A stretch of 64,000 nucleotides of DNA, taken from a bacterium. Lineage in GTDB: Bacteria > UBA8248. Positions within the stretch are counted from its first letter, which is position 1. Each line of letters starts with the position of its first letter. Under the pieces are notes generated by a model. It did not search any database and was not told the DNA's origin. It saw only the letters and a list, made by a program, of their open reading frames with translations. The position numbers and the translations under genes were made by a program. Below, piece by piece: positions 961 to 29,600 of the stretch. The DNA lies in assembly GCA_965213685.1 (NCBI GenBank), contig CBDBZY010000018.1, forward strand, positions 1 to 64,000, written 5' to 3'.

Positions 961-1677
961 CATGTTTGCAAAATGTGTTTCATACTCATTTTTGTGCTTC
1001 AAATCTCTTAAAGATGAATCTAATAGAAAAAAAATAGAGCGATTTGGTGGTTTAGTCATTTTCTGGCAATAATACTCTTTAGCTACTTGGGAGGTGTTTT
1101 TGGGTAGAGAAATGCCTGAATGAGGTTGCTAAGTGCCTAAACATTCTTAGAATGCTAGTAGGAGTGAGTTTAGGAGGCTTTTGTGTGTACACACATACTA
1201 TGGGTGTGTGGGTGCCATCCACACACAGAGAGTCTACAAAATTAATAACTAGCAGAAGAGGGAATGTAACACAATTTTAGTAGGATGAAGAGTAATTTGC
1301 TTTCATGTACATGTGTTTAGATGCAATGAACAACACTGTTCACAGCAGAAAAAAAAATACCCAATAATTGTTTATGGAATAATAATCATGCCATAAGCAT
1401 TGCACAATTTGGGGGAGTTACTTGTGTATATCCTCTTATGCATATCCTCCTGGGTTTACTTGTGTATATCCCATGTATATCTTCTTATGCCCTGTGTTTC
1501 CTGCACATTGCCATCATTGTGTCTAGTTTGTGTTGTTGTGGCCTGCCATAATTATTATGGCAGGCTACAATGAATGAAAATATACACATGCAATGCTAGT
1601 CCAAAGAAGAGCAAATCTCCTGTGCTTAGCTCAACAGATCCTATCCATCTACCAAAACAGGAGAAAAGTCTTCAGTA

Positions 1678-1915
1678 CCTTAAGATGACTATTTTTTACA
1701 GGTACATTTTTTGGCGATTTGGGGATTATTATCATTTTGCAGGTACTAAATTTTGCTATTTTCACTTGTGAGTGAGATGACCAATCATTCAAATATATTG
1801 TTGAGAAGACTACATGCTAGTAAAACTTTTGTTTGCGTGTACAAAATTTTGCATTTTTGTGCCAATCCGCAAAAATGTCAAACATTCGTACCCGCAAAAA
1901 ATAGTCACCTTAAGG
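1678..1915. mobile_element. Tc1/mariner-type MITE
   Basis: TIR CCTTAAGATGACTATTTTT / AAAAATAGTCACCTTAAGG, flanked by TA on both sides. Confidence 0.8.
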
Positions 1916-3715
1916 TATATTTGAAGTGTCTAATTCTATTGTGATTGCATAGCACAAGATTTCCAATGACAATATTATGCTGCCAATGTATTGCAAAATG
2001 CAGTCACAATATTATTACATTGCTTGAGCTTTCAATTACAAAAACTGTAAGTCATAACGAGCTGTAGCTCTAATACACAATTATTCTAATAGATACGTGA
2101 GTTCACTCTTCCAAGGGGTATATACTTGCATCGAAATAGTATTATGCCTCATGATAACATTGTGTAGCACTCTTATGAGAATGGCCACATCATCAGGCAG
2201 TGTAAATTGCAATCATGACAAATTCAGAATGCAGTTCAACATGGAACGTATGAAACATTATATCCAATGAAGATAATATGGCTATATTGTCTGTGCCCAT
2301 AATCAGTTCAGCTTGAAAGTTGTTTGTTAACATTTTCAACTTCACAAGTAGTCATGTGAAAATAATTGTTATGAACATATTATTTCTTGTGCAGCTACAC
2401 CACAGAAAGAACATTATATGCATTTCGTCACTGTAGTTTTAATATCACTGATAGTAGGGGTGTTCATGGCTCTGGCCAGCATACTGCTAGAGCCATTGCA
2501 TGCAGGGATCATTAACTGTGCTTCTATACTTCCAGAGTGTGGTGTACCACTTAGTGACCGTTTTGTTGTGGCAGAGTAGCCACAAAGTTGTTCAGGAATC
2601 ATGGAATCACTATTGCTTGCTTGTGCAGAATAGAGATGCTTATAGATGCTTATAGGCTTGTCTTTTCCTAATCAAAATCCATCTACAGATACATGAATGT
2701 ACTTTTCTAGTGACATGGCCTTCCCACAGAGCAGACAGTGAAGAGTAGTGGTTACTTTCAAGTGTATTTTTGGGGTACTGACTAAGGGAAGAGAAGAATT
2801 AGGTGGCAGTATAATGGATACATGTACAAAAGATGTTATACAGTGAACTTAGTATATACTACAAGGAGGTACAACAATTACACAATGACTTCAACAAGAA
2901 GAACAACAAAGTGTACAAATTATGTAAAGATAGTTGATACTTCAATGAAAGATGTTGCGTAGCTACCTTGTACACCAAGAAACATAGCATGACTAGCAAT
3001 ACTTACACCAATATTTGATTACATTTGTGTACATAAAGAACAACAAGCACACATAAACACATAAACAAAACAAAAGACACACAAAGCACAAAGGGCCACT
3101 TAAAGGCTGCACGTGATGGAATCCGTGGGAATTCCTGTGAATGAAGTGAGAAGAGCCCATTGATTTATGTATGTATGCTAAACACACATACATGCAAACA
3201 AATTTAGTGCATGTAGTGAATGTTGACATAAATACTCCAAACCCCAAAACCTTGCAGTGTTTGTACGCTATTATCACAGCAAACTTTCATTATGTGTTTG
3301 TTAACACAACGTCAGAAAACATAAGGCCACAGATGTAGTGGAGCAATGATAGCAAGGTGCACATGAATGGAAACATAAGGAATACAGATGATCCATTTTT
3401 GAACTTAGGAATAGTCTCCTTACATCAAGCTGAGTGCCACACTAACATAGCAATTTATCATTGCATGTGTTGGCCATGGGAATATTTTCTCCACATTCTG
3501 GTAAATGCAGGCCTGCACCATTCAACAGACTAATGCAAGTGTAGCTACAAATGCCCTTATGGTATACTCGCAGGTTTGCTAATGTTGCACCTAGTGTGGA
3601 GCCACACCTTCTCATTAGCAGAAGGGAATGCCCCCTTCCATTAATATTCTAACAAAAGATATATTTTCACAGCAAATAGTATGAAAAACATTTTCCAAAC
3701 ATATAGAGGGCTGTA

Positions 3716-4000: not shown

Positions 4001-5049
4001 CACACCTGTACAATTTTTTCATGCTTGTTTGTGTACTATTTTTTGTACAATAGTACACAAAACGTTCTTGCAAGCTTCTTCAGTGATCAGAGCAGCCATT
4101 GTTACCAGCCAGCAGCAGAGATACGGAGGGTAGAGTGGGCATTGAACCTCGTCATCAGTCACCTTTGAAGTTGGGAGGCTGAGCCCCTCTAAAAAGTCCT
4201 GAGCTACAGTAGTTTCCTCACTGTATCTGACTTTCTAACTCATACTAGTTACATTAATGTTCATTGTACAACTGTACAGCGAAGTAAGATGCTGCTCGAA
4301 CGCACTCCTTCACTGAGACAGTAACCTTTGGCACGTCAAGCCATTGAGAAATTAATTGGTGTGGCTTCGCGAGGTCAACCCCTCACGTGCATACAATTTG
4401 CACCGCATGACAGAAAATGGCTTCCAAATAATTATGGTAAAGTTGTTTGAGACTTCTAGATTCAGCTCATAGTAGAGAAGATACTAACATGTTATCGTAG
4501 ATCACACTTGGTAGTGATTGCAGCGGATCTGTGAAAGAACTACGGTGATTACTTCAGCCAGTTTCAAGTAAAGTCATTTGAAAAAAATCTCGTAAAAAGA
4601 AGAATAAGAACAACAAACAAAATCACCTTTCAGCCATTATCTGGCAGTAAGTCAAGGAATGCATTTCAGCTACTTGTGGGATATTGTTGGGTAGAGAAGC
4701 GGTGGAATAGCCCATTTGCGTGCTGAGAAAGGCTTAAAACGCAAGTATTCTCGAGTCAAGAAGGCTCTCCAATGTACACACACTACGGGAGTGTTGGTGC
4801 CATCCCTACATAGAGAGTCCACAAGGTACATAGAATGCCGTAGTAGAGTTTATATGCCACAATTACATTCACTCACCCTTCCCATTATGTGATTGATACA
4901 AAATGTGTGCAAGCAGTGCAGAAGGATTAAATCTGATGAGTTTTGCCACTTGCACATTGAATTACTATTGTTTTACTAATATTGCTCCACATAGAGCATT
5001 ATAGATACCTATAGTTCAACAAAACAGAGGTGTGTCAGAAGATACTTAC

Positions 5050-10040
<4,991 letters not shown>

Positions 10041-10149
10041 CTGTTCACGTAAAAGCAAGTAGCAATAGTAACAGTAAGGGCAATCAAAAGCCAGTATGAC
10101 TGCTATATAAGTGTATAAGCAGATGCGGCACTGCCTGCACTTTACATTC

Positions 10150-11050
10150 GCACTATAATCTTTTTTGTGGGGGGTTATTGAATGTCCTAGTATTGTGTTT
10201 ACAGCGCAGTAGTGTGATTGTCCGCCGTTCCTGCATAACGCTTCGCACGGTCGTATAAGAGCGTTCGTACTCGCGGCCTTCCGCAGGCTGGGCGTGGCTT
10301 ACTTTGGCCTCTGCCTTTGCAGCTGCGCCTTTGGAAACGCTTACGATAAATTTGAGAGCTTCACGTCTCACGACGTGTGCATCACGATATCAGGCCAGCA
10401 ATATATACATGTACATAGCGGAATAAGGTTGCACGTGACACACTTGAGCCTCATTTCCGCTCATGCGCATGCAGGCACTAATTCCGGGTATTGCATATTG
10501 ACCACACCCGTGAGGGTCAAGGTTCACAATTAAGACCATCCTGTAGCTGGAGAAACAGCTGTTCACATGAAGATCAGGTGAGGGTGCCAAGCAACGTGAA
10601 GACGCACGATCACGCGCTTCATGAGCGGCCAGAATGATTACTGACGCTGAACTCAGAACGACTGAAGGTACGGACAATGGACTGCCTTTATCCGAAACCC
10701 TCACAGAGCATGATTACGTGGGAACTTATTAAGGGAGGGCGAGTCATGATTGCGTTCTTCGTCAATTACTCTACTGTCGCTTTCCCCCTACATTTACCAA
10801 CGCGAAAACGACAGCAATTCTTTGGCGCGGTTGCAAATTCGCTGGGAAAAAATTCATATTTCCCGCTACCGTTGGACGTGCGGCGCTGTGTGGCGCCAAC
10901 CGGTGAAGAGGTGGATGCTCGCCAAAGGGGAGTGAACTAGTTTATGCGCAATGGGTTGCTCGAGGCTTGGCTTGTTACTTTACGGCAGAAATTGCTACCG
11001 TTTTTCTAAATTCTGCAGCACGAAGAAAACGATTATATGTCTAGAAAGAA
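10150..11050. promoter_or_regulatory. CpG-rich island at the 5' end of the Roc-COR gene (probable promoter/first exons)
   Basis: Local CpG enrichment against CpG-poor flanks; ORF 10153..10371 could supply a first coding exon ending in a phase-1 GTAAAC donor near 10203. Confidence 0.45.
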
Positions 11051-11468
11051 AGATTAGCACGGATTTTTAATTTTTATTTGGCTCTATGTGTATGTGGCAG
11101 TTAAAGAGTTCCTGTAAGCTATCAGTGTGTGTTTGAATGTTGTGATACTCTGATACATGTATCTGTACATGCACATGTATATGCTTCGCTGTGCAATTTT
11201 CAACCTGCATCTCTCTCTCTCTCTCCCTCTCTCTCTCTGTAACGAGATAAGCCGAGTGGATGAACTGGCTCAACTCATAAGCCTTACAGACTGAGACAAG
11301 ACAAAGGTACAGATAACCATGATAAAGGTACAGATAACCACACCCACTGCGTGTAGTCAAGATGGATCGAGGGCCATCTGCAGTGATAGAGCTTCCTTCC
11401 TTTCATTGCTGAGTTCGTTTCTCCCTCCCTTGCTCTCTTCTCCCTCTCCTCCCCCTCTACTCCCTCAG

Positions 11469-11833
11469 GTGTTCCAGAAGCACTCATTCTCCAACCTCTG
11501 CCAGCTCAGAGGTGAGTGGTAGAGCATCCCCCTACTTCTTTACCTGTCCTCCTCCCTTCCTGCCTCCCTCCCTCCCTTCCTGCCTCCCTCCCTCCCTCCC
11601 TCCCTCCGTCCCTCCCTTCCTGCCTCCCTCCCTCCATCCTTCCCTTCCTGCCTCCCTCCCTCCCTCCCTTCCTGCCTCCCTCCCTCCCTCCCTTCCTGCC
11701 TCCCTCCCTCCCTCTCTCCCTTCCTGCCTCCCTCCCTCCATCCTTCCCTCTCTGACTCAGGCTTCGAAGTCTCTCTCCCCTACCCCTACTCCACCACTTG
11801 GAGTGGCTCTACCTGGGAGGAAACAAGATCCAG
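11469..11833 (+). pseudogene. Two orphan leucine-rich-repeat exons
   Basis: cag|11469-11511|gtgagt = VFQKHSFSNLCQLR and cag|11761-11833|gtag = LRSLSPLPLLHHLEWLYLGGNKIQ (LxxLxLxxNxI); their phases are not directly compatible. Confidence 0.55.
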
Positions 11834-12089
11834 GTAGCCACCCACCTTCCTTCCCACACTCTCCCTCCCTCTCTCCCTCTCCCTTCCCTTTTTCTTTCTG
11901 TCCTTTCCTCTCTCTCTCCCTTCCTCCCTCCCTCCCTCCCTCCCTCCCTCCCCCCCTCCCCACCTTCACCCACACAAACTCGCCACATACATGTATGACA
12001 ATTCCTAAACCATAATATTATGACAAGTCCTAAACCACAAGCCACCTGTACCACTCTCTCCCTAATAAGGCACACCATGCAGCCACCAG

Positions 12090-17600: not shown

Positions 17601-20600
17601 TTACCATGCCTGGCCAGGCTGTGTGGGTGTTTCCCAACTGTCTGTGATGGGGCACAGAGACCACCTCCACCCTAACTAACAGCTCCTCCTCAAGCAGCCA
17701 CTGCTAGAGAGGCAGCACTGCAGCACAGAAGAGACAGCCTAGCACCAAACATTACTAACTAGAGGAGTGATGCAGCCGAGGAGGGCCTTGGAAACAAGAG
17801 AGACATGTCTACAGCAGATGAGCTTATATCAGCTCCCACGACTGCTCCTGAGACTGCACTGGAGGGAGAAGCTCGGCTACAGTAAAGACACATTATATAT
17901 AATTGCTTAAAAATAGATTGGCCTCTGAGACAATAGACAGGAGAGAGGTCCAGCTATGTAGTCCAGTTAGAGGTGATAACAACTCCTCAGCATGAGAGAT
18001 TGCTCAGTGATAGTACTAGACAGAGGGAGCTGCAGAAAGTCACAGCTACAAGAAGCTCAGGTGCAGTAGAGAAACGGATTGCTTTGAGGCTGTTACTTAA
18101 TGGCCTTTGAGAGAGTAGAGACAGTAGAGAATGGAGAGGTCCAGCTGTACAGTCCAGTTAGAGTTAAGAGCAACTCCTCAGCATGAGATATATCTCACTG
18201 ACAGTACCAGACAGAGGGAGTTGCAGAAAGACATAAACTACAGTGCATGTGTACATGTACATAAGGGTTAACTCAAAGTTTGCCATTCATATGGAGGGCA
18301 CACTCCCACTAGAGGGTCTGAAAGAATGCCACTGAGTAAATTATTGAAGTACAGACACTCTCAGATGGATTCTGACGTATTCTGCAAGTAGTCATAGCCA
18401 TTCCCATTATTTTGTTGGGGAGGGGGAGGGATGAAGTTGCTTTCTTGTGGGAGGGGGTGATATTCTAGGCCTTTTCCTCCCCCTGCATGAACCCCTGCTG
18501 ATTTTGCAACACAACTGTACCCCATACACATGGCCACATGTACAATCATGCATACCTTACTGCACCTAATGATATCCTAAAATTTGAGGTACATAGGAGA
18601 GTGCAAAGAAAAGGTATAACTGATCTGCAGCACACACTGTAAAAATGGGGTGTTATCAGAGCACCAGGGTGTCAAATTTCTGTGTGTTATGCAGACACCT
18701 AAGTGTTCCCACAACACTCCAATGTCAAGATAACACCAATGGGGTGCTAATGGAGCACCCCTTGTGCTGTCTCAGCACCTTGATTTCAGGTATCAAAGCT
18801 AGGAGTGCTTTTGCAACACCCTGGTGGTTACAGCAACACTGTGACACTCATACCTGGGGTGTTACCTTAACATGCCAGGTGTCCAGGCATGTAGCACCTG
18901 TGGTCATCTTAGCACCCACAAGGGGGTCACAGCCAATTTTGATGTCTACGGTACCATATGTAACCTATACGTATGTGAACATCATGCAATAATAACTACA
19001 CAATGGTCATTGAAAGTGATGTCTCATGATTATAACAATTGTAATAATAATAATTATTATATTCACATAATGTATATAATACTGTGGATTTGTTTAAATG
19101 TATAGAAAAGAAAGAGGAAAGTTTACACCACAGGAAACCTACCAACATCCCATCAAAGAGGAGTGAGAAAGTAAATGTGAATGCAACACCAATGAGAGCT
19201 CGATTTGTTCACAATAAAGTCGAGAGCTGCCCATCAAAAGATGTGCTATCTTGACAGCTATAATTGAAGATATTTTTAGTGTCATGGAGCATGCATATGA
19301 GAGTATTAAGAACAAAGATTGGAATGAGCAAATCCAGGTAGCTAAATTACGGATGAAAATAGCCTGTACAAATGAGAGAAAAGTCACAAGAAAGGAGAAA
19401 GGACAATAAGCCATACAAATGCATTTTACACTCACATTCCACAGGTTGAGGAAGTGAGATCATTAGTCTGGCATCAGTTATGGGTCACAGTGTGGAGCAG
19501 AGATTTGTACTCTATCACTTTACCTTCTGCCTTCTTTGTATATTAAATATTTCATGTTAGTGTTGACCTATATGTGTTTTCTGAAACTTACAAATGTAGC
19601 TGATAGTATTAGTGTAAATACACATAATTAATAACAAAAATTAATACAGTCCATGGAAACAACCAGAATATAATTCACTCTAAGGTAAGGTCATCAGCCA
19701 CAAGGCCCAACATATCAGACAAACAGCCACACAGCCACCAAAGCCCAACATATCAGACTGAGAGCCACACGGCCGCCAAAGCCCAACCTATCAGACTGAC
19801 AGGCACACGGCTGCCAAAGCCCAACATATCAGACTGACAGCCTCACGGCCGCCAAAGCCCAACATATCAGACTGACAACCACACGGCCACCAAAGCCCAA
19901 CGTACCAGACTGATAGCCACACGGCCACCAAAGCCCAACATATCAGACTGACAGCCACATGGCCACCAAAGCCCAACATATCAGACTGACAGCCACACGG
20001 CCACCAATGCCGAACATATCAGACTGACAGCCACATGGCCACCAAAGCCCAACATGTGAGACTGACAGCAGCACAGCCAAACATACAATGTACAATGTAT
20101 CCAACCGTCAACACACAGCCACACTGCCACAACTCTAACATATCAGACTGACAGTAACAAAGGCAAACATATCAGACAGACAGTCACACTGCCACAAAGT
20201 CCAACACATCAGACTGACAACCGTACAGTCACATATGTGGCGGACGGGTACAAACTTAGACAACATAAATCAGCATGCCTTTTATACGAAGAGATTAGGC
20301 TACGCAGGGGTAAAGACTAGCGTTTAGTAATAAACTCACTGGTCTCCTCCAGCAATCGCCACACATGTCTAGGTTTGCCGCTACTTGTCTTAGGACTCCT
20401 TTTCCATCCCACGTCCCAAGGACAGTCAGGACATCCCAGGGTAGCCCTGTCTGTCCCATTGAGGGCCCAAATCACACTGTCCTTCCCATCCCACGTCCCA
20501 AGGACACTCAGGGCATCCCAGAGTAGTCCTGTCTGTCCCATTGAGGGCCCAAATCACACTGTACTTCCCATCCCATGTCCCAAGGACAGTCAGGACATCC

Positions 20601-23600
20601 CAGAGTAGTCCTGTCTGTCCCACAGAGGGCCCAAATCACACTGTACTTCCCATCCCATGTCCCAAGGACAGTCAGGACATCCCAGAGTAGTCCTCTCTGT
20701 CCCATTGAGGGCCCAAATCACACTGTCCTTCCCATCCCATGTCCCAAGGACACCCAGGACATCCTAAATTGTCATGTCTCTCCACATATGAACCCAAAAT
20801 CACTCTGGCGTCTCATCCCATGTCCTGAGGACTGTCAGAGTGCAGTCCTGTCTGTCACACTGATGGCATAAAATTAATAGCACTGTTCTTTTCACCCCGA
20901 TCCCAGGGAAGTTGGGGCATCCCATGATAATCTTATTTGTTATAGTGGGTGGCATTTGGCACTTTATCCCAAACATTTTATTTGTCCTTTTGGGTGATAC
21001 TATGCATATAGCATCCTTGAAGACAATAATTTAGTTGTAGCACATTTGAAAAAGAATCATCACTTCATACTATATGAGATAAGGTACATGCATTTTGGCT
21101 ACTAAATGCTATGAATCCTTGATGTTGAGGAATAATGAATGGTATGGGAATAATGAATGCTTGATATCTGGGAATAATAGTTATCTGGGAATAATAAATG
21201 CTTGATATCTGGGAATAATGAATGAACCATAACCTGATCAGTGGATAAATGAAAAGATGCATGTGATTAAGATTAGTTTTTGGATGGTGAAGCCCTTTCT
21301 GGACTGAACTTTCTTGGAGACTTTCGCACAGGAGGTTCATAGTCCAGCATGCACTTTTTTTCCTTTCACTCCACTAAAGAACAGAGATACCTATTGTAAA
21401 GCACACAGACTTATGAACACATCAAAGAGTAGAGGCATGTGGCTTTCACTCTACCTGCACACGAGGTTAATTACAATGTTCTTATAATATTATTGTTAGG
21501 CAACAGCACAAGATCACCTCTCTGTATAGACTAAGAGTCAGTATTAAATGATACAGAGAGGGAAAATGGTGGCTGCTACATTGTGGTAACTGATGTTGGT
21601 ACATGTAGGTATGAGGTGGAAATCTTCATGCATGCATTCGCTATGACCTCACCCTTTGATTTCAGGTTGCTCAAGCTGTTGTGAATACTGGAGCAAGGAC
21701 ACTTTGTATTTCATCAATGCTTTAGCTAGTGAGCCTCGTTCCTCATCAGTCTCTGGTATGCTGGTTTTTACAAACCTGTAGTGCTATCAGAGGTGTGACA
21801 TTCACATATGTGTGAATGAAACCTAGAGTGCCTTTAAAACATGCGCCCCTATAATATCCACATTAAAATATACCGGATTTTCTCCTTCCAACTTTCCTTG
21901 CCCATCACTCTGCAGCTTCCAGAATGCTGTCAAGGTACCTTCTTTGTTCCCTCTATTTCGGAACTTCTTTGCCAGCAGAAGGCTTGGCAAATGAAGTTCA
22001 CGCCCAGGCAAGGTAAGGCAAAATGCCTCAATACTAGCTGGGGCTTTCACAGATGGTCTGTTTTCCTGCACAGTACAGTAGAATACCATAAACAAAAGTT
22101 ATAATTATTACTTTGTGGTGAGCCATTCACAGTACACAAATGTAGTGCTTGGTGACAAAATGAACCAGTTACAATGTAGGTTTAGCTAGGGTAACTTTCA
22201 CAGGCACAATTATACATGCATGCCTATGTACATCTGTTCATACATCCCTAAACCCACATAAAATATATATGCACCTGCTTCGATCAGTTTTATTTCCTTT
22301 TCAATCTCACCACGACCTGCAATGTATGCTGTCTGTTGACAACAGACCTCTACAAAGTCAATGGCTGCTATTACAGCCTGTTCCGAGATAACATCTGGGA
22401 GTGACTCTTGTGATGTATCAGACAGTAAGTGGAAGAGGACGTGAAGAGATGCTGCAACTCGTAATGTCTGCCCTAAAGACTTGCTCAACATACCTATAAG
22501 GAGTGATAGTCATTGTACATGAAAATTTGAGAAGTTAATGTAGCCATACCAGCCAGAAGATCATCTAAGGCAGCCAAGGTTTCCAACTGCTCTTGAACAC
22601 TATCATACTTAGTTGTGAAAGCATCCAGTCTTGATGGTACATGGAAAATCCATTCATTCAGGCCTCCATCTCGTGGTTTTTACCTCCACAGTGAAGCAAT
22701 GCTCACTGCAACAGTGCACATAACACAACAAAGTAATAGTGCCCTATCTACATTGTTCATAATCAAAAACGTTTAGGGAGTCTAACATTACCATGCAAAA
22801 GTGCAGGCAATGCTATTCTTCAATCATGTATGGGAGTGGTCTTTGCCACAGTGTTCAGTGCATGATACTACCAAGGATTCAACAGTAATGACATACATGT
22901 AGAAGCATAAAAGTACCCAGTAACATGTTAAAATTTTGCATTTGTACTGTTATTTTTACACGTACCTATTTTGTCACTAAAGTCTTTCCTAATTGGCTCC
23001 AATGAGTCAAATTTGCCATACAAAGGTTTTGAGAATATCCACAAAAACCGCTGCGAGAGGCCTTTCTCTGCGTTACCAGGCATTTCAATGAGAGCACGTG
23101 CAAATGACGGCTGGTTGAATCCTCCAACTGTAAGACTAGTTTTCGCATTGAAAAGTTAGCATCTCCAGTTACTGCATAGATACATACATGTGTATGTATT
23201 TACAAAAGCTAAATTATTAGTACTTGGATTAAAACATACCCGTGCTCCTTGACTATGGATTAGCATTGTATAGTTCTAAAAACATAGCTAATTCATGGGA
23301 ATCGGAAATTCCTCTTCCTCGGAAAATGTTCAGCTTTCCAAGAAAAGATGACAATTCATCGTACATCCCGAGCAGGCAACCCCCATTAGCAGCCATTAGT
23401 GCCTCCATCTTTTCAAAGGATGCATCCTGCAATAGCCACACACTCTCATTTATCAAAAGATGTGGGATTGATCAAACACAGCACCTGAGAATGTACATAG
23501 TATCATCTCCATTTTCAGGCTATCCTATCACACATAGAAACTTAACCAGCACCAGCCTATGCCTACATTACATATACTTCATCTCCCCTAAGAATTAGGA

Positions 23601-26600
23601 GGCCTACTGGTCAGCCCAAGAGTTGCATACTTCTGTATGTGATACCCTGGAGAGCTTGGCAATGGGGGCTAATATATGTAATACCTCTGCAATCAATCCG
23701 TGTCTTAGCAGTCCTGATGAGGTTGAGCAGGTACTAATGCATTGTGGACTTACGACTCCCTGTTTGCATACATATCATAAGCCAAATGAATGCTGGCTCT
23801 GCCCAGTCAGTGGAAGGTACACGCACGACTGCAGGTGACAGTACAAAGCTTGTGAGGATAAGCAGCCCTCCTAGTACAGCAGCAGCAGGTACACTAATGG
23901 CTTTAGCAACTTGATGACATCCCTAATAAATTATAGCATACAACTTATACTTTGAGTTGGAAACACATAGAGATATATATATATAACTACCAGAATGGGT
24001 ACTATGACATTAAGAAGAAATATCACACAGCAGAGGGTCCTACACCTGAAGTATCAAGGTTTGTTAGTGAAACACGATTTTACACTCCCCAAGCACATCG
24101 CAAGCAATAGTTGTTAGTACTTTACTTTTAGTGGCTCATGCACTGAATATGGGGAATGGTATTTACAATGTACGTACATACCTCCAGGTGTATGTATACA
24201 TTACAGGAGTCTACAGGCTAACATACAACTGTAGGTGTAAATCATATTCGGGCCAAGTGCACATGCTAATTTGATCTATTGTACATGTACATGCACCTTG
24301 CTCAGAGTGTAAATAAAAATATGATGCAATTTCACAATTCACAGGGAGCTGTTAGAGCGAATGAAGATGGATCGTTGAAGGCTAGAATCAGCACACTTGC
24401 GGTTTGCTGCATTAAAAGTGTGTTCAAAGTATGGTGCTGTAAGATCCCTGTCTGCCAACACAGTACACGCCGATATTCAACAAACACTAGCTAAAATCAC
24501 TCCCATGTTTTTCACTGTCTTTAGATCTACTTATGCAGGTATGTACATGTATGATAGCATAACATGAGCATGCAATTGTACTTGTGAAAGTATATACAGC
24601 AGATAGATGCATGCTGGCAGAATTAACAGGGTATGTATAAGTATGTATAATTCTTCACCAGTCTCTTTAACTATTACTGTCACATAATGTTTACAGAACA
24701 TTGCTGTACATATCCTGGATGCGGAACAGTGCTAGTGCTGGATGGCAATCTCAATAACCAGTGGGAAGTATGCATGGCAAAAGATGCTGGCTTCACTGAG
24801 TTTGCTGGGTCTACCAGGGTCGATAAGAACAGGGTGTCCACGTACTCCTGCCTTTAAATGTCGGTATTGTACAGAGCACATGAACCAAGCATGTACATCT
24901 CAACCAGAATGTGGAAGTGCTGAAAGTAGTGAAGGAGAGTCTATAATTGAGGTTATTCTTGCCAAAAAGGTTACACGTAGTGAGACATACTATCAGGTAC
25001 GTCGCACTAACTGAAGTAATTCCTGTTACTGCCCCCCTATGATTCCATTCATTGCTTCCTATATTCTTTTAAGGTTTTGTGGCTTGGTCAACCTCAGTTG
25101 AAGACAACTTGGCTTGGTGCATCATCACTTCCTGCTACTGCCATTGAAGAGTATGAGAATGGTGTATCCACAGAAGCAATAACGACTACAGGTCATTCGT
25201 ATGGTCAGGTGTCTAGTACACTATCTGTTACAAAACGAAGCAAGACAGGACCTGATTCAAAATGTGCAAAGACAGTCCGACCAGTAGTTGCAATAGCTGA
25301 GGGGTAAGCACTTCATGTTTATCATAGTTTGTTCCCAAACTATTTGTGGATGCCTACAAATGAATGAATTGACATATCCATGTTACTTCTCTGTCATAAT
25401 AGAACAAGTATTATTTCAGGGTGCAAGTAGCTGATATATTTACTACTCGGGGTTTTCAAGGAAACACAAGAAGAACACAGTGTAAAGCCTAAATGCGGAA
25501 CAGAAAAAGACAAGGGCATAAGACTGAATGCACGAACTGCTGGTATGAAAGCAAAATGCACAACTCTACCTCTCTTATAAATACATTCTACCTTAAACCC
25601 TGAGAAACCTTGGCAGAGACACTGTTGTTAGTAACTGTTATGGTTGCCAGGCAATGGCACGATACCAGTGTACACAGCTGAGCAATCCATGTATCCCACA
25701 TTCCCTTTGGTTACATCAGTTCTACAAACTATTACACAACTACTAGTAACAGTTTCCACAAATGACTAGATGTTAATTATAACATTCCCATTTTTGTTAA
25801 ACCTGGTCTGGCCAAATATCTACCCTCTGTCCTCCAACATTGTGCACTTTTAGGTATCAGGGCATGTATGCAACTCAAAAGGGGTGTCTATAAGTATGAC
25901 AGAAATTTGCATATATAGTACCTATTCTACAATAAGTGTTATACGTATGTATGCTTACGTTCTTCTTTAAGCACAAACTTACCCTTCCATGTGCTATATA
26001 TTTGTATTATATATCTGCCACCAATCTCAGGCATCCTCGCTGCAATGTGGTCATGTGGAATCATTATGCATGTTTCAGAGCTATTCACCGCTGAATCAAA
26101 ATCTCAGGTTTATGGACAGCTACATGACCTGCTACAAACAGAAAGTGCCATTGCAACTACTTTAAAGTGCGTTCATACATGTACATGTGGATCAAAATTC
26201 ATTATAAAAATATTCATCACACTCTTTTCCTTCTTTTGTACATGGACATGGAGAATTTGTCTGTATGATGACGGATGTCACCTTAGAAAGTTTGCCCAAA
26301 ATCCCTGCAGAAAAGATGCTACTCCTACAGCAACAGTTATTTCAGGGTTAAACATTGTAGTAGATAAACTTCACATGAAAGGTCATGTAGACCCTTGGTG
26401 CAAAGCAAACTCTGATGCCAAAAGTTTCACAGACCTTGACAATGTAAGGTGGAAGGTTAATAAGATTCAAGATTGAATTCACTCTTATACTCTCTTCTCC
26501 ACATTTTAACGCAGGTGAACACAGAAATTTGCGAGCAGACATTTTCATGGCTGTCAAGATACAGTAAAATCACAAGAAAGATGTCACGTCACACCTTCTT

Positions 26601-29600
26601 TTCTTCGTGCTCTATTTATGTGACCTCCATAACCAATGAGAAATTCGCAAGCTCAAAAATAGCTCATTAATGTGACAATGTTTTCTGAATATTGTGATTT
26701 TCTCACTGTCTCTTAAAGTACATTTACATAGATGACTCAATACACATACATTTTATAAAATGTCCATTAAATGCATTGGTTTGGTGGGATGAACAACAAT
26801 GTCTTGACTGGCCTTGGGACTCCAGAAAAGTGTCACTGAGTTGGACAGATGGGACTATCTTGGGGTGTCCCAAATTGTCCTGAGGACACAGAAAGTGGGA
26901 TCAGTGGGATTATCCTGGGATGTCCCAATTGTCCCAATTGGGACACAGGATGGGAGGGACAGTGGGATTTGGGCCACCCAGTGGGACAAGTGGGATTGTC
27001 CCGAGATGTCCCAATTGTCCTTGGGACACAGGATGAGAAGGACAATGGGATTTGGGCCACCCAGTGGGACAAGTGGGATTGTCTCGAGATGTCCCAATTG
27101 TCCTTGGGACACAGGATGGGAAGGACAGTGGGATTTAGGCTACCCAGTGGGATGAATGGGATTATCCTGGGATGTACCAATTGTCCAAATTGTGCCAATT
27201 GGGACACAGGATGGGAAGGACAGTGGGATTTGGATGACCCAGTGGGACAAATGGGATTATCCTGGGATGTCCCAATTGTCCTTGGGACACAGGATGGGAA
27301 GGATAGTGGGATTTAGGCTACCCAGTGGGACGAATGGAATTATCCTGGGATGTCCCAATTGGGACACAGGATGGGAAGGACAGTGGGATTTGGGCCACCC
27401 AGTGGGACAAATGGGATTATCCTGGGATGTCCCAATTGTCCTTGGGACACAGGATGGGAAGGACAGTGGGATATGGGCCACCCAGTGGGACAAATGGGAT
27501 TATCCTGGGATGTCCCAATTGTCCTTGGGACACAGGATGGGAAGGACAGTGGGATTTGGACCACCCAGTGAGACAAATGGGATTATCCTGGGATGTCCCA
27601 ATTGTCCTTGGGACACAGGATGGGAAGAACAGTGGGATTTGGGCCACCCAGTGGGACAAGTGGGATTGTCTCGAGATGTCCCAATTGTCCTTGCGAAAAA
27701 GGATGGGTAGGACAGTGGGATTTGGGCCACCCAGTGGGACAAGTGGGATTGTCTCAAGATGTCCCAATTGTCCTTGGGACACAGGATGGGAAGGACAGTG
27801 GGATTTGGGCCACCCAGTGGGACAAGTGGGATTGTCTTGAGATGTCCCAATTGTCCTTGGGACACAAGATAGGCCACTCAGTGGGACAGATGGGACTCTT
27901 TTAGGATGTCCCACTTGCTCTTTACATTTTGGAGTCATTAGAAAGAATGACAATAGGCTCAATTCTTGTGCCATTATTATAGCAAGAACAGGATGGTCTC
28001 AGGATATCCTAGGCAGTCCAAAAAATGGGACATGCAAAGAATCCTAGGACTAGTGGTGGCAAACCGGGACAACACTGGCAATCGCAGAGTGATGCATGTA
28101 GAAACAGCCCCTCATGGCTCCCAACACATCATGCACTTTCTGTGTCAAGGTCAACTGCCACTTGGCCGTCGCGCCCGGCCGAGTGCATGCCCAAAACGAC
28201 GTGCGCCTGCGCACAAAAAAAAGCGCGGTGCATTCGAACGTGAGCAGATACTTCAGCCATGATTTCTTCAAAGCGCATGTTCCCATCATATTTAGAGGGC
28301 AGTGAAAATCACGGATTGATGGCAGAGTTACCATGAAGTTCAGTTAAAACCTCCCACGTGAAAACAATACCCGGCCTGAGATCGGTGCTACTGAGATCAG
28401 TGGAAGATAAACAAGGCAAGATTGTACTTTTATCTCTCATTGTGCGTGCTTCGGTGAGCTCTGGGCAAGCATGAACTTTCGTAAGCCATATATTCGTTTT
28501 TGTGTTCGAAGTATGTCCCTTGTCATGTTTTATAGAGCACTCCTATCACCTCAAACTAGCGCTATTAAACACGAGCTGTGTAACCCTACCCCTCCCCAGA
28601 AGACCTGCCTGTCAACTACCTCAACTGGCACGAAGCTTTTTTGCATGAAGGTAAGGGGGAAAGCGCCATATATTGTGAACAAACATGTACACTTGCATGA
28701 CTCTCCTTCCCTCTCCAGATGTTGGCAATGAATTGGCCACATCCTGTCTTGTGGGTATCATGTATGGTGTGACAACTCAGGAAGCACTCTAAGTCTTCCC
28801 ATTTATGTGTTTTCCTTAGTGAGTAATGATGAAGTGATATCTAGTTTTTGAATGCAAGAACTTGTCTTTTATAGAAGTGTAGAAGTGAAGAAGAATTGAA
28901 GCCTATAACTGTACTGTGTGGTACATTACCTATAAGAACATCTAACACATTACCATGTAACTACCATGACTGGACTCTCAGGGAGGTATGCTTCTGTTAG
29001 AAGTCCCATAATACAAATGTGTGATATGTACTTTTTCATCCTTCATTGCAGAATTCATTGAAGAAGTTTTATACTTTAACCTGAGGAGCATCACTATTAT
29101 GGTAAGTGTTGAGGTAGTTAACCCTACAAAGCAACATCTTGCAGCCTATAGCTACTTGCATGTATTATGTTGTATCTATTTTATGTCCACATATTTCAGA
29201 CCATATATATCAGTTCATCCATGAAGTTAACATAGGTAAGTATTTAGATGCCCTCTTACAAAAGTATAACTAAAAAGAGATGGTTATTTCAACCTTGCTA
29301 AGGTTATCTCAGTTGCAACTGAATGACATCATGTCACCCCCACACTCACCCTCCACACTGAGTTATCCTATACTCTTGAGACTGAAGGCATGTGGGCAAA
29401 GTGTAGAGTGTCTCCAATAATACATGAGTAATTGTACAGTTAAAAAGAATTTGTTGGTTTGACAATGATGTTTGTTATGTGGGGTTTGTTGTGTCAAGGC
29501 CTGGCTTTCATCCACCATAAGCACCTTTTGAGCAGTCAAACCTGTATTCTGGAATGTTATTGACAACATACAGGAAACTTCTACCTATGCTTCAGGCTGC

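Follow-up and report, generated by a model that had tools for sequence, protein, structure and literature searches.

A dead KDZ-superfamily transposon with a putative DUF3987 helicase-family partner gene in a bacterial genome record

Eukaryotic cut-and-paste transposons are usually described as needing a transposase alone, sometimes together with a DNA-binding helper. An element that pairs its transposase gene with a gene of helicase type raises the question of whether the second gene serves transposition or is simply carried along. Such an element lies in the stretch analysed here (the window), the first 64 kb of contig C18 (CBDBZY010000018.1) in an assembly filed as a single bacterial genome. 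We read 20360-28077 of the window (7.7 kb), with a probability of about 0.7, as a dead copy of a transposon of the KDZ (Kyakuja-Dileera-Zisupton) superfamily, belonging to a two-gene lineage in which a predicted DUF3987 helicase is a motor maintained by the element rather than passive cargo. A role of the helicase in transposition is suggested by the conserved linkage of the two genes, by purifying selection and by the known activity of the helicase family. The element is laid out as follows.

20352..20359: left target-site duplication (TSD), GCAATCGC, an exact 8-bp duplicate of the right copy
20360..20397, plus strand: left terminal inverted repeat (TIR), tip CACACATGTC, matching the reverse complement of the right end at 27/38 positions
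20404..20838: left subterminal tandem array, 5.3 copies of an 82-bp unit
21658..23922, minus strand: decayed DUF3987 gene (superfamily 6 (SF6)-like helicase), sub-threshold in Pfam, with three in-frame stops
23922-23698 (Walker A, GSRKST) and 23450-23232 (Walker B, YDELSSF), minus strand: DUF3987 exon remnants
23146-22979 (GGFNQP..QRFLW), 22712-22545 and 22506-22276, minus strand: DUF3987 exon remnants
22047-21835 and 21780-21658, minus strand: DUF3987 exon remnants
23923..24339: shortened intergenic region, where relatives carry an N-terminal exon; none was found in the window
24340..26658, plus strand: decayed KDZ transposase gene, recognised by its own motifs, with the family assigned via relatives
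24340-24543, 24666-24809 (DGN) and 24808-25005 (frame-shifted), plus strand: KDZ exon remnants
25044-25304, plus strand: KDZ exon remnant, chromodomain
about 25458-25545 (CGTEKDK..TAG) and 25994-26227, plus strand: KDZ exon remnants
26240-26449 (YDDGC..HxxGHxDxWC) and 26488-26658 (NTEICEQ), plus strand: KDZ exon remnants
26894..27870: right subterminal tandem array, 11.7 copies of an 83-bp unit, inverted relative to the left array
28040..28077, minus strand: right TIR, tip (reverse complement) CAGTGTTGTCC
28078..28085: right TSD, GCAATCGC

A preliminary description of this DNA had proposed a dead, Zisupton-like transposon with an exact 8-bp TSD, TIRs and two divergent, intron-containing genes, and this outline stands, the epithet 'Zisupton-like' needing qualification. 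When both ends were shifted by up to 10 bp either way, giving 441 offset pairs, GCAATCGC was the sole 8-mer to match exactly, and 27 of the 38 terminal bases pair without gaps as an inverted repeat, 14 of 20 at the tips. An 8-bp TSD is also made by Zisupton and by the mobile Cryptococcus KDZ1 (PMC12730594, PMC11343200, as far as the available text of each goes). The two genes stand head to head, only about 420 bp apart, with canonical GT..AG introns (for example 26444-26514) and with every motif quoted for them. The preliminary description had not mentioned the chromodomain, the subterminal arrays or the presence of eukaryotic DNA inside a bacterial bin, all of which were found here. No second nucleotide copy of the element was detected in the 8-Mb assembly.

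The plus-strand gene is predicted to encode a KDZ-superfamily transposase with an inserted chromodomain. Its motifs (DGN, YDDGC, DKLHMKGHVDPWC and NTEICEQ) can be read in the window open reading frames (ORFs) 24651-24857, 25919-26476 and 26464-26670 in the order DGN...YDxxC...HxxxHxxxxC...TExxE, which we take to be the defining set for KDZ and which is conserved in the relatives' alignments A3 and A6. The fragments are 44-53% identical to the exons of relatives, and their match to Chromo is weak (Pfam, E 0.16). Since window fragments match Pfam below threshold or not at all, both family assignments rest on better-preserved relatives, and there the profile searches back the assignments of the preliminary description. 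A profile of the YDDGC..HxxGHxDxWC..TExCEQ exons (A3) picked out 1635 of 1.84 billion representative proteins at E≤1e-3, and eight of the nine long relatives scanned matched PF18758 (KDZ) above cut-off, at 31-46 bits. A natural read-through ORF at one metagenome locus (L020:281-712) reached 32 bits against a cut-off of 26.6, and the exon of another, L012, stayed below threshold (E=8.6e-4). CxC5 (PF18718), which Pfam labels 'cysteine cluster associated with KDZ transposases' and which is located in the N-terminal exon of the relatives, was above cut-off in L012 (33.8 bits), in the copy on contig C41 of the window's assembly (27.5 bits) and in P0149, one of the nine long relatives (33.7 bits). 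Chromo was above cut-off in two of the nine long relatives, P0072 and P0104, upstream of the KDZ match.

In the window this gene carries a stop at about 24379 and frameshifts near 24808 and near 26590-26600. The copy is also missing the CxC5 exon of the transposase, about 0.9 kb long: tblastn with the N-terminal ORFs of three relatives (E≤1e-3) did not find it in the window. The shared divergent promoter is probably missing as well.

The epithet 'Zisupton-like' holds for the superfamily and fails for Zisupton in the strict sense. In the accessible part of PMC11343200, Zisupton is CxC4 plus SWIM with KDZ, whereas the present lineage has CxC5. Neither SWIM nor CxC4 gave a match in Pfam scans of the window, C41, L012, L017 and the database relatives; as CxC5 and Chromo were found instead, strict Zisupton was rejected, and the element is classed as a member of the KDZ superfamily with no assignment to one KDZ clade. 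The nearest ESM Atlas clusters, which we note as leads, are a mostly rotifer CxC5/KDZ cluster (299 members) and a second one, for the chromodomain, that includes a sponge member.

The minus-strand gene, with the motifs GSRKST, YDELSSF, GGFNQP and GLSQRFLW, is predicted to encode a DUF3987 P-loop protein, of a family reported as SF6/MCM-like helicases. It is interrupted by in-frame stops near 23733, 23253 and 22680, and its Walker A is degenerate, GSRKST being followed by a stop where most relatives have GSGKS[ST]. The assignment to DUF3987, made in the preliminary description from motifs, is borne out in relatives, where PF13148 was above cut-off at locus L034 (73.6 bits), in the first exon of L017 (53.7 bits) and in the C41 exons (37.8 and 28.6 bits). 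In alignment A7, the Walker A lysine is kept in all 15 rows that cover it and the Walker B YDEL in every covering row. The arginine of QRF[LIM]W is kept in 11 of 14 covering rows, including the full-length L034 and P0004, the exceptions being L029 (QHFLW) and the decayed fragments P0156 and P0158. Introns in the gene are GT..AG and lie at conserved positions, the exon junctions of L017 and L020 being canonical. The free-standing protein of the element has about 500-600 aa. P0004, from the sea anemone Exaiptasia diaphana, has 611 aa and is annotated as 'hypothetical'; it falls in the same DUF3987 group and matches the PHROG 'DNA helicase' (E=5e-5).

Published work, within the portions available, describes DUF3987 proteins as divergent SF6/MCM-like phage helicases with a C-terminal winged helix (PMC4889955) and as companions of archaeo-eukaryotic primases on bacterial mobile elements (PMC5862659), and reports that a bacterial PriCT-DUF3987 protein is an ATP-dependent 5'-3' helicase (PMC11724360). 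Word-indexed protein searches for relatives returned 2, 2 and 6 matches, too few for a deep alignment, and the best match of profile A5 among PDB sequences was an unrelated entry at E 0.18. L034, a short contig rich in AT, holds at 1587-3194 an intact, intronless DUF3987 gene of 535 aa whose product is 40% identical to P0004. The nearest ESM Atlas cluster, again a lead, is eukaryotic: 71 members, mostly rotifer 'DUF3987 domain-containing protein'.

Does the pairing extend beyond this locus? Metagenome contigs were queried with the DUF3987 Walker B exon only, which gave 23 loci from five record sets, and exons in these loci were located by tblastn with KDZ and DUF3987 exon pieces. The set is partly redundant: L030 lies inside L031, L023 is nearly identical to L024, and L016 and L018 have one flank in common. 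At least one KDZ exon was present in 17 of the 23 loci, and in 17/17 the KDZ exons lay upstream of the DUF3987 gene on the opposite strand, with the start regions of the two genes 0.4-0.7 kb apart. The full set of N-terminal, DGN, YDDGC and TExCEQ exons was found in ten loci (L012, L013, L014, L016-L020, L027 and L028); the KDZ gene is cut off by the contig end in L015, L021, L025 and L029, and L023, L024 and L026 have a KDZ piece only. With less than 1.6 kb of upstream sequence, L030, L032, L033 and L034 are uninformative on linkage. Protein identities divide the copies into at least six lineages (the window, C41, L012/13, L014, L015/21 and the L016-20/25/27/28 group), which are 40-60% identical to one another in the DGN exon and 46-71% in the DUF3987 exon. 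With this layout recurring in 17/23 loci and in six lineages or more, a one-off capture, the outcome against which the preliminary description had proposed to check, does not explain the pairing: other copies do carry DUF3987.

In the window's own assembly (host DNA of about 4.9 Mb), both genes are present at two of four loci, and all four loci are decayed. The C41 copy (L009, G000:C41:422000-440000; 5797-11925, minus strand) has transposase 5' exons followed by DUF3987 exons on one strand. Of the transposase it retains the N-terminal exon together with those for DGN and the chromodomain and lacks the YDDGC/TExCEQ exons; it also has the DUF3987 exons and one array. Its arrangement resembles what an inversion and a deletion would make of the canonical head-to-head unit. 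Beside it, at 13875-16820 of L009 on the minus strand, a 981-aa ORF free of interruptions has motifs resembling those of endonucleases and reverse transcriptases (YADD) and is a putative retrotransposon of the long interspersed nuclear element (LINE) type. The C64 copy (L010, G000:C64:1552000-1568000; about 6600-8850) consists of transposase 3' exons only, between arrays of a ~91-bp repeat, and is probably a non-autonomous deletion derivative. The remaining locus, C18:806913-810225, has DUF3987 only. No relative was found in the genome contig collection, scanned with DUF3987 and with KDZ, or in the viral contig collection, scanned with KDZ.

The better-preserved relatives show what a more complete element looks like. 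They are 12-13 kb long, and each end has a TIR and a long subterminal array whose repeat unit measures 65-83 bp. In L012, which spans about 12.6 kb, the TIR is 77 bp at 91% identity and the arrays hold about 22 and 25 units of 80 bp; L016 is about 12.9 kb with 65-bp arrays. The tip CAYACATGTC is common to the window and the L016/L017 and L028 families. The pentamer GGACA/TGTCC occurs about 44 times per kb in the left array of the window and 1.8 times per kb in the element interior. In three families (window, L012 and L016), whose units otherwise differ, its density in the arrays is 10-29 times that of the interior, and it also lies within the TIR core (ATGTCC). These densities, which repetition itself inflates, make it a candidate for the core of a transposase-binding site. 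The L016-L019 copies are 97-99% identical to one another and the left flanks of L016 and L017 differ, from which it follows that this family was recently active. A look-up for RNA runs covering L017:2000-11700 came back empty. L016 and L018 have their left flank in common and not their right one, a pattern for which rearrangement is a possible cause.

Selection was assessed between the L017 and L020 families, for which synonymous sites are nearly saturated (proportion of synonymous differences, pS, 0.51-0.67). The DUF3987 exons gave proportions of nonsynonymous differences (pN) of 0.052 and 0.059 at pS 0.67, or dN/dS of about 0.03-0.04; the transposase exons gave pN 0.12-0.13 and dN/dS of 0.10 and 0.16. 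Both genes are thus under purifying selection between element lineages, and the constraint is tighter on DUF3987. The recent copies L015 and L021, compared with each other, have dN/dS of 0.6-0.96, as expected for neutral decay after insertion.

Several observations weigh against a helicase maintained by the transposon for its own mobility, or against parts of that reading. None of the window's own fragments matched the Pfam KDZ family, and its four collinear DUF3987 matches (profile positions 2-53, 124-179, 197-237 and 312-362) scored 18-21 bits, all below the cut-off of 27. Folding was of no help, as AlphaFold2 models of the full DUF3987 protein (P0003 with A5, predicted local distance difference test score (pLDDT) 41) and of its first 338 residues (A7, 26 rows, pLDDT 51) were both too poor for a fold search, so that the predicted AAA+/SF6 fold is taken from Pfam and published work. 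In L012 and L016, the two other copies with both termini, a clean 8-bp TSD was not recognised. At L022 and L031, at least 6.8 kb upstream of DUF3987 are free of KDZ; the former derives by deletion from the L016 family. The loci were chosen via DUF3987, a selection that would miss chromodomain-KDZ elements lacking it. Deep co-divergence of the two genes is not claimed: the correlation of their pairwise identities is r=0.92 over all 50 pairs, a value driven by close relatives, and falls to a weak r=0.38 for six representatives, one per lineage (122 of 720 permutations at least as high). With one close pair kept among the representatives, r is 0.75 (65 of 5040 permutations at least as high). Lastly, the TET/JBP genes of Dileera-type fungal KDZ elements, a precedent for cargo, can also be conserved (PMC12730594, in the excerpt available).

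This precedent favours the alternative that survives best, although we think it unlikely: that DUF3987 is conserved cargo benefiting the element or its host outside transposition, through counter-silencing, DNA repair or defence. The mobile Cryptococcus KDZ1 and KDZx1 likewise carry genes of unknown function, according to the accessible text of PMC11343200, and contact between the KDZ and DUF3987 proteins is not indicated by any of our results. On the other side, the DUF3987 gene is stand-alone and head to head with the transposase in 17/17 loci, it is under tighter constraint than the transposase itself, and the members of its family work on DNA, being helicases of replicative type from mobile elements (PMC11724360, PMC4889955, PMC5862659, each in the sections available).

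It is very improbable that the pair are domesticated host genes with no transposon around them. The strong purifying selection between the L017 and L020 families would fit such genes, as would the rearranged C41 copy, which places chromodomain and DUF3987 exons on one strand. The TIRs, TSD and subterminal arrays speak against it, as do the several 97-99% identical copies with different flanks, the neutral decay of the recent copies (L015 versus L021) and the fact that 4/4 loci in the window's assembly are broken.

Less likely still in our estimate is chance nesting or one-off capture, whether of two unrelated elements or of a transposon and a neighbouring gene. The assembly does contain a KDZ-only copy (C64) and a DUF3987-only one (C18:806913-810225). 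C64, however, is a short internal-deletion derivative lying between arrays, and an accident is contradicted by the recurrence of this arrangement: 17/23 loci show it, drawn from five record sets and covering at least six lineages with protein identities of 40-70%.

The nature of the source DNA bears on the last alternative. The assembly holding the window is 7.97 Mb in 71 contigs, with marker-gene estimates of 94% for completeness and 3.7% for contamination. GC is about 61-69% in fifty contigs, most of them nearly fully covered by long ORFs (one contig, of 2.5 kb, has 33% GC); 21 contigs, 4.89 Mb in total, have 42-54% GC and low ORF cover, among them C18 (813 kb, 45% GC, 15% ORF cover). The bacterial contigs amount to about 3.1 Mb at roughly 65% GC with dense ORFs, and the 41 further genomes from the bacterium's family, which measure 2.0-4.6 Mb, gave 0 matches to KDZ. 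LINE-type reverse-transcriptase fragments, microsatellites and death-domain-like ORFs are also present in the window. From the GC and ORF contrast, the introns, the LINE fragments and the KDZ-free bacterial relatives, the window is eukaryotic DNA, most likely of an animal host, that was binned with a symbiont. The assembly is thus a chimeric bin in which 21 contigs (4.89 Mb) are eukaryotic host DNA beside bacterial contigs; the marker-gene contamination figure of 3.7% fails to reveal it, and that about 4.9 Mb of a 'bacterial' reference genome are host DNA matters to users of the record. That DUF3987 is bacterial or phage DNA mis-assembled onto eukaryotic sequence is hardly credible, even though the family is chiefly prokaryotic and phage and the record is a bacterial genome by marker genes (94% complete), as the gene sits 20 kb inside an 813-kb contig with 45% GC and low ORF density, against ~65% GC in the bacterial contigs, has GT..AG introns at conserved positions and a sea anemone relative (P0004), and 0/41 same-family bacterial genomes have KDZ.

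The canonical element of the better-preserved relatives, which we read as autonomous, comprises two spliced genes divergently transcribed from a 0.4-0.7-kb spacer, with TIRs and arrays outside them. Its transposase consists of an N-terminal CxC5 zinc cluster and a KDZ DDE-type catalytic domain, with the chromodomain between DGN and YDDGC. On the strength of KDZ family knowledge, on which the transposase part of this mechanism is built, the enzyme would bind the GGACA-containing repeat units and the TIRs, with CxC5 serving in DNA binding, and would cut and paste with an 8-bp staggered cut of the target, the chromodomain presumably serving chromatin targeting. If the helicase is indeed a motor maintained by the transposon, it would be co-expressed from the shared spacer and would act on element DNA during or right after transposition; it might unwind the ends, for instance, or link strand transfer with replication or repair.

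Several known systems share parts of this organisation. Mu (MuA/MuB), Tn7 (TnsB/TnsC) and IS21 (IstA/IstB) pair a DDE transposase with an AAA+ ATPase, and AcademH and Helitron are eukaryotic elements with helicases. All have in common with the present lineage an element-encoded P-loop ATPase or helicase accompanying the transposase, but the ATPase families differ, and a functional analogy can be put forward as a hypothesis. With the KDZ superfamily at large the lineage shares catalytic-domain homology, an N-terminal CxC cluster, a multi-exon gene, TIRs, large element size and, in the window copy, the 8-bp TSD; it differs in having a chromodomain set into the catalytic region, tandem arrays of some length next to the termini and an obligate-looking DUF3987 partner gene. 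The prokaryotic and phage DUF3987 helicases (such as AgaPH) share the Pfam family, Walker A/B and the association with mobile DNA. Theirs are fused or adjacent to archaeo-eukaryotic or DnaG primases and serve element replication, whereas the present gene has no primase or polymerase beside it, contains spliceosomal introns and is partnered by a DDE-type transposase.

The closest counterparts inside the superfamily are fungal. The available part of PMC11343200 presents Cryptococcus KDZ1/KDZx1 as elements of 6-11 kb with an 8-bp TSD and a transposase plus extra ORFs; they differ in being fungal, with CxC1 or CxC4 plus SWIM, and their extra ORFs are reported as unknown. The TET/JBP-carrying fungal Dileera elements also combine a KDZ transposase with a gene for a second DNA-acting enzyme (PMC12730594, in its accessible part), but that partner is a base-modifying dioxygenase and not an NTPase or helicase. 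The KDZ literature, within the text available of PMC12730594, PMC9297572 and PMC11343200, describes TET/JBP genes or unknown extra ORFs and no helicase partner. The preliminary description knew of no KDZ family with a DUF3987 partner, and our literature searches agree: no eukaryotic transposon paired with DUF3987 was found, the founding KDZ paper, Repbase and supplements lying outside the search.

A phage-type replicative helicase that a lineage retains under strong selection would extend the accessory functions of the KDZ superfamily by a new one. It would also be a clear example of an animal transposon having taken up a gene, introns included, from prokaryotic mobile elements, and the bacterial systems that combine a transposase with an ATPase provide a parallel that can be tested. 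A bolder proposal, which we advance tentatively and regard as rather unlikely, is that this is the first eukaryotic DDE-type (KDZ) lineage to depend on an MCM-like (SF6) helicase of its own, one that came from phage or from bacterial mobile elements and was long kept in animal genomes. If true, it would mean replication- or repair-coupled, Mu-like transposition in animals, or ATP-driven target choice of the MuB/TnsC type. The ESM Atlas leads indicate that the pairing may extend to rotifers and cnidarians.

Two further features of the window lie outside the element. At 5009-10044, on the minus strand, a 716-aa ORF with a P-loop (GAPGVGKTS) adjoins a death-domain-like ORF and is reminiscent of animal immune genes of the NLR/ROCO type. 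Directly outside the element's left end, at 19697-20069, there is a 38-bp tandem repeat in 9.8 copies with 89% matches.

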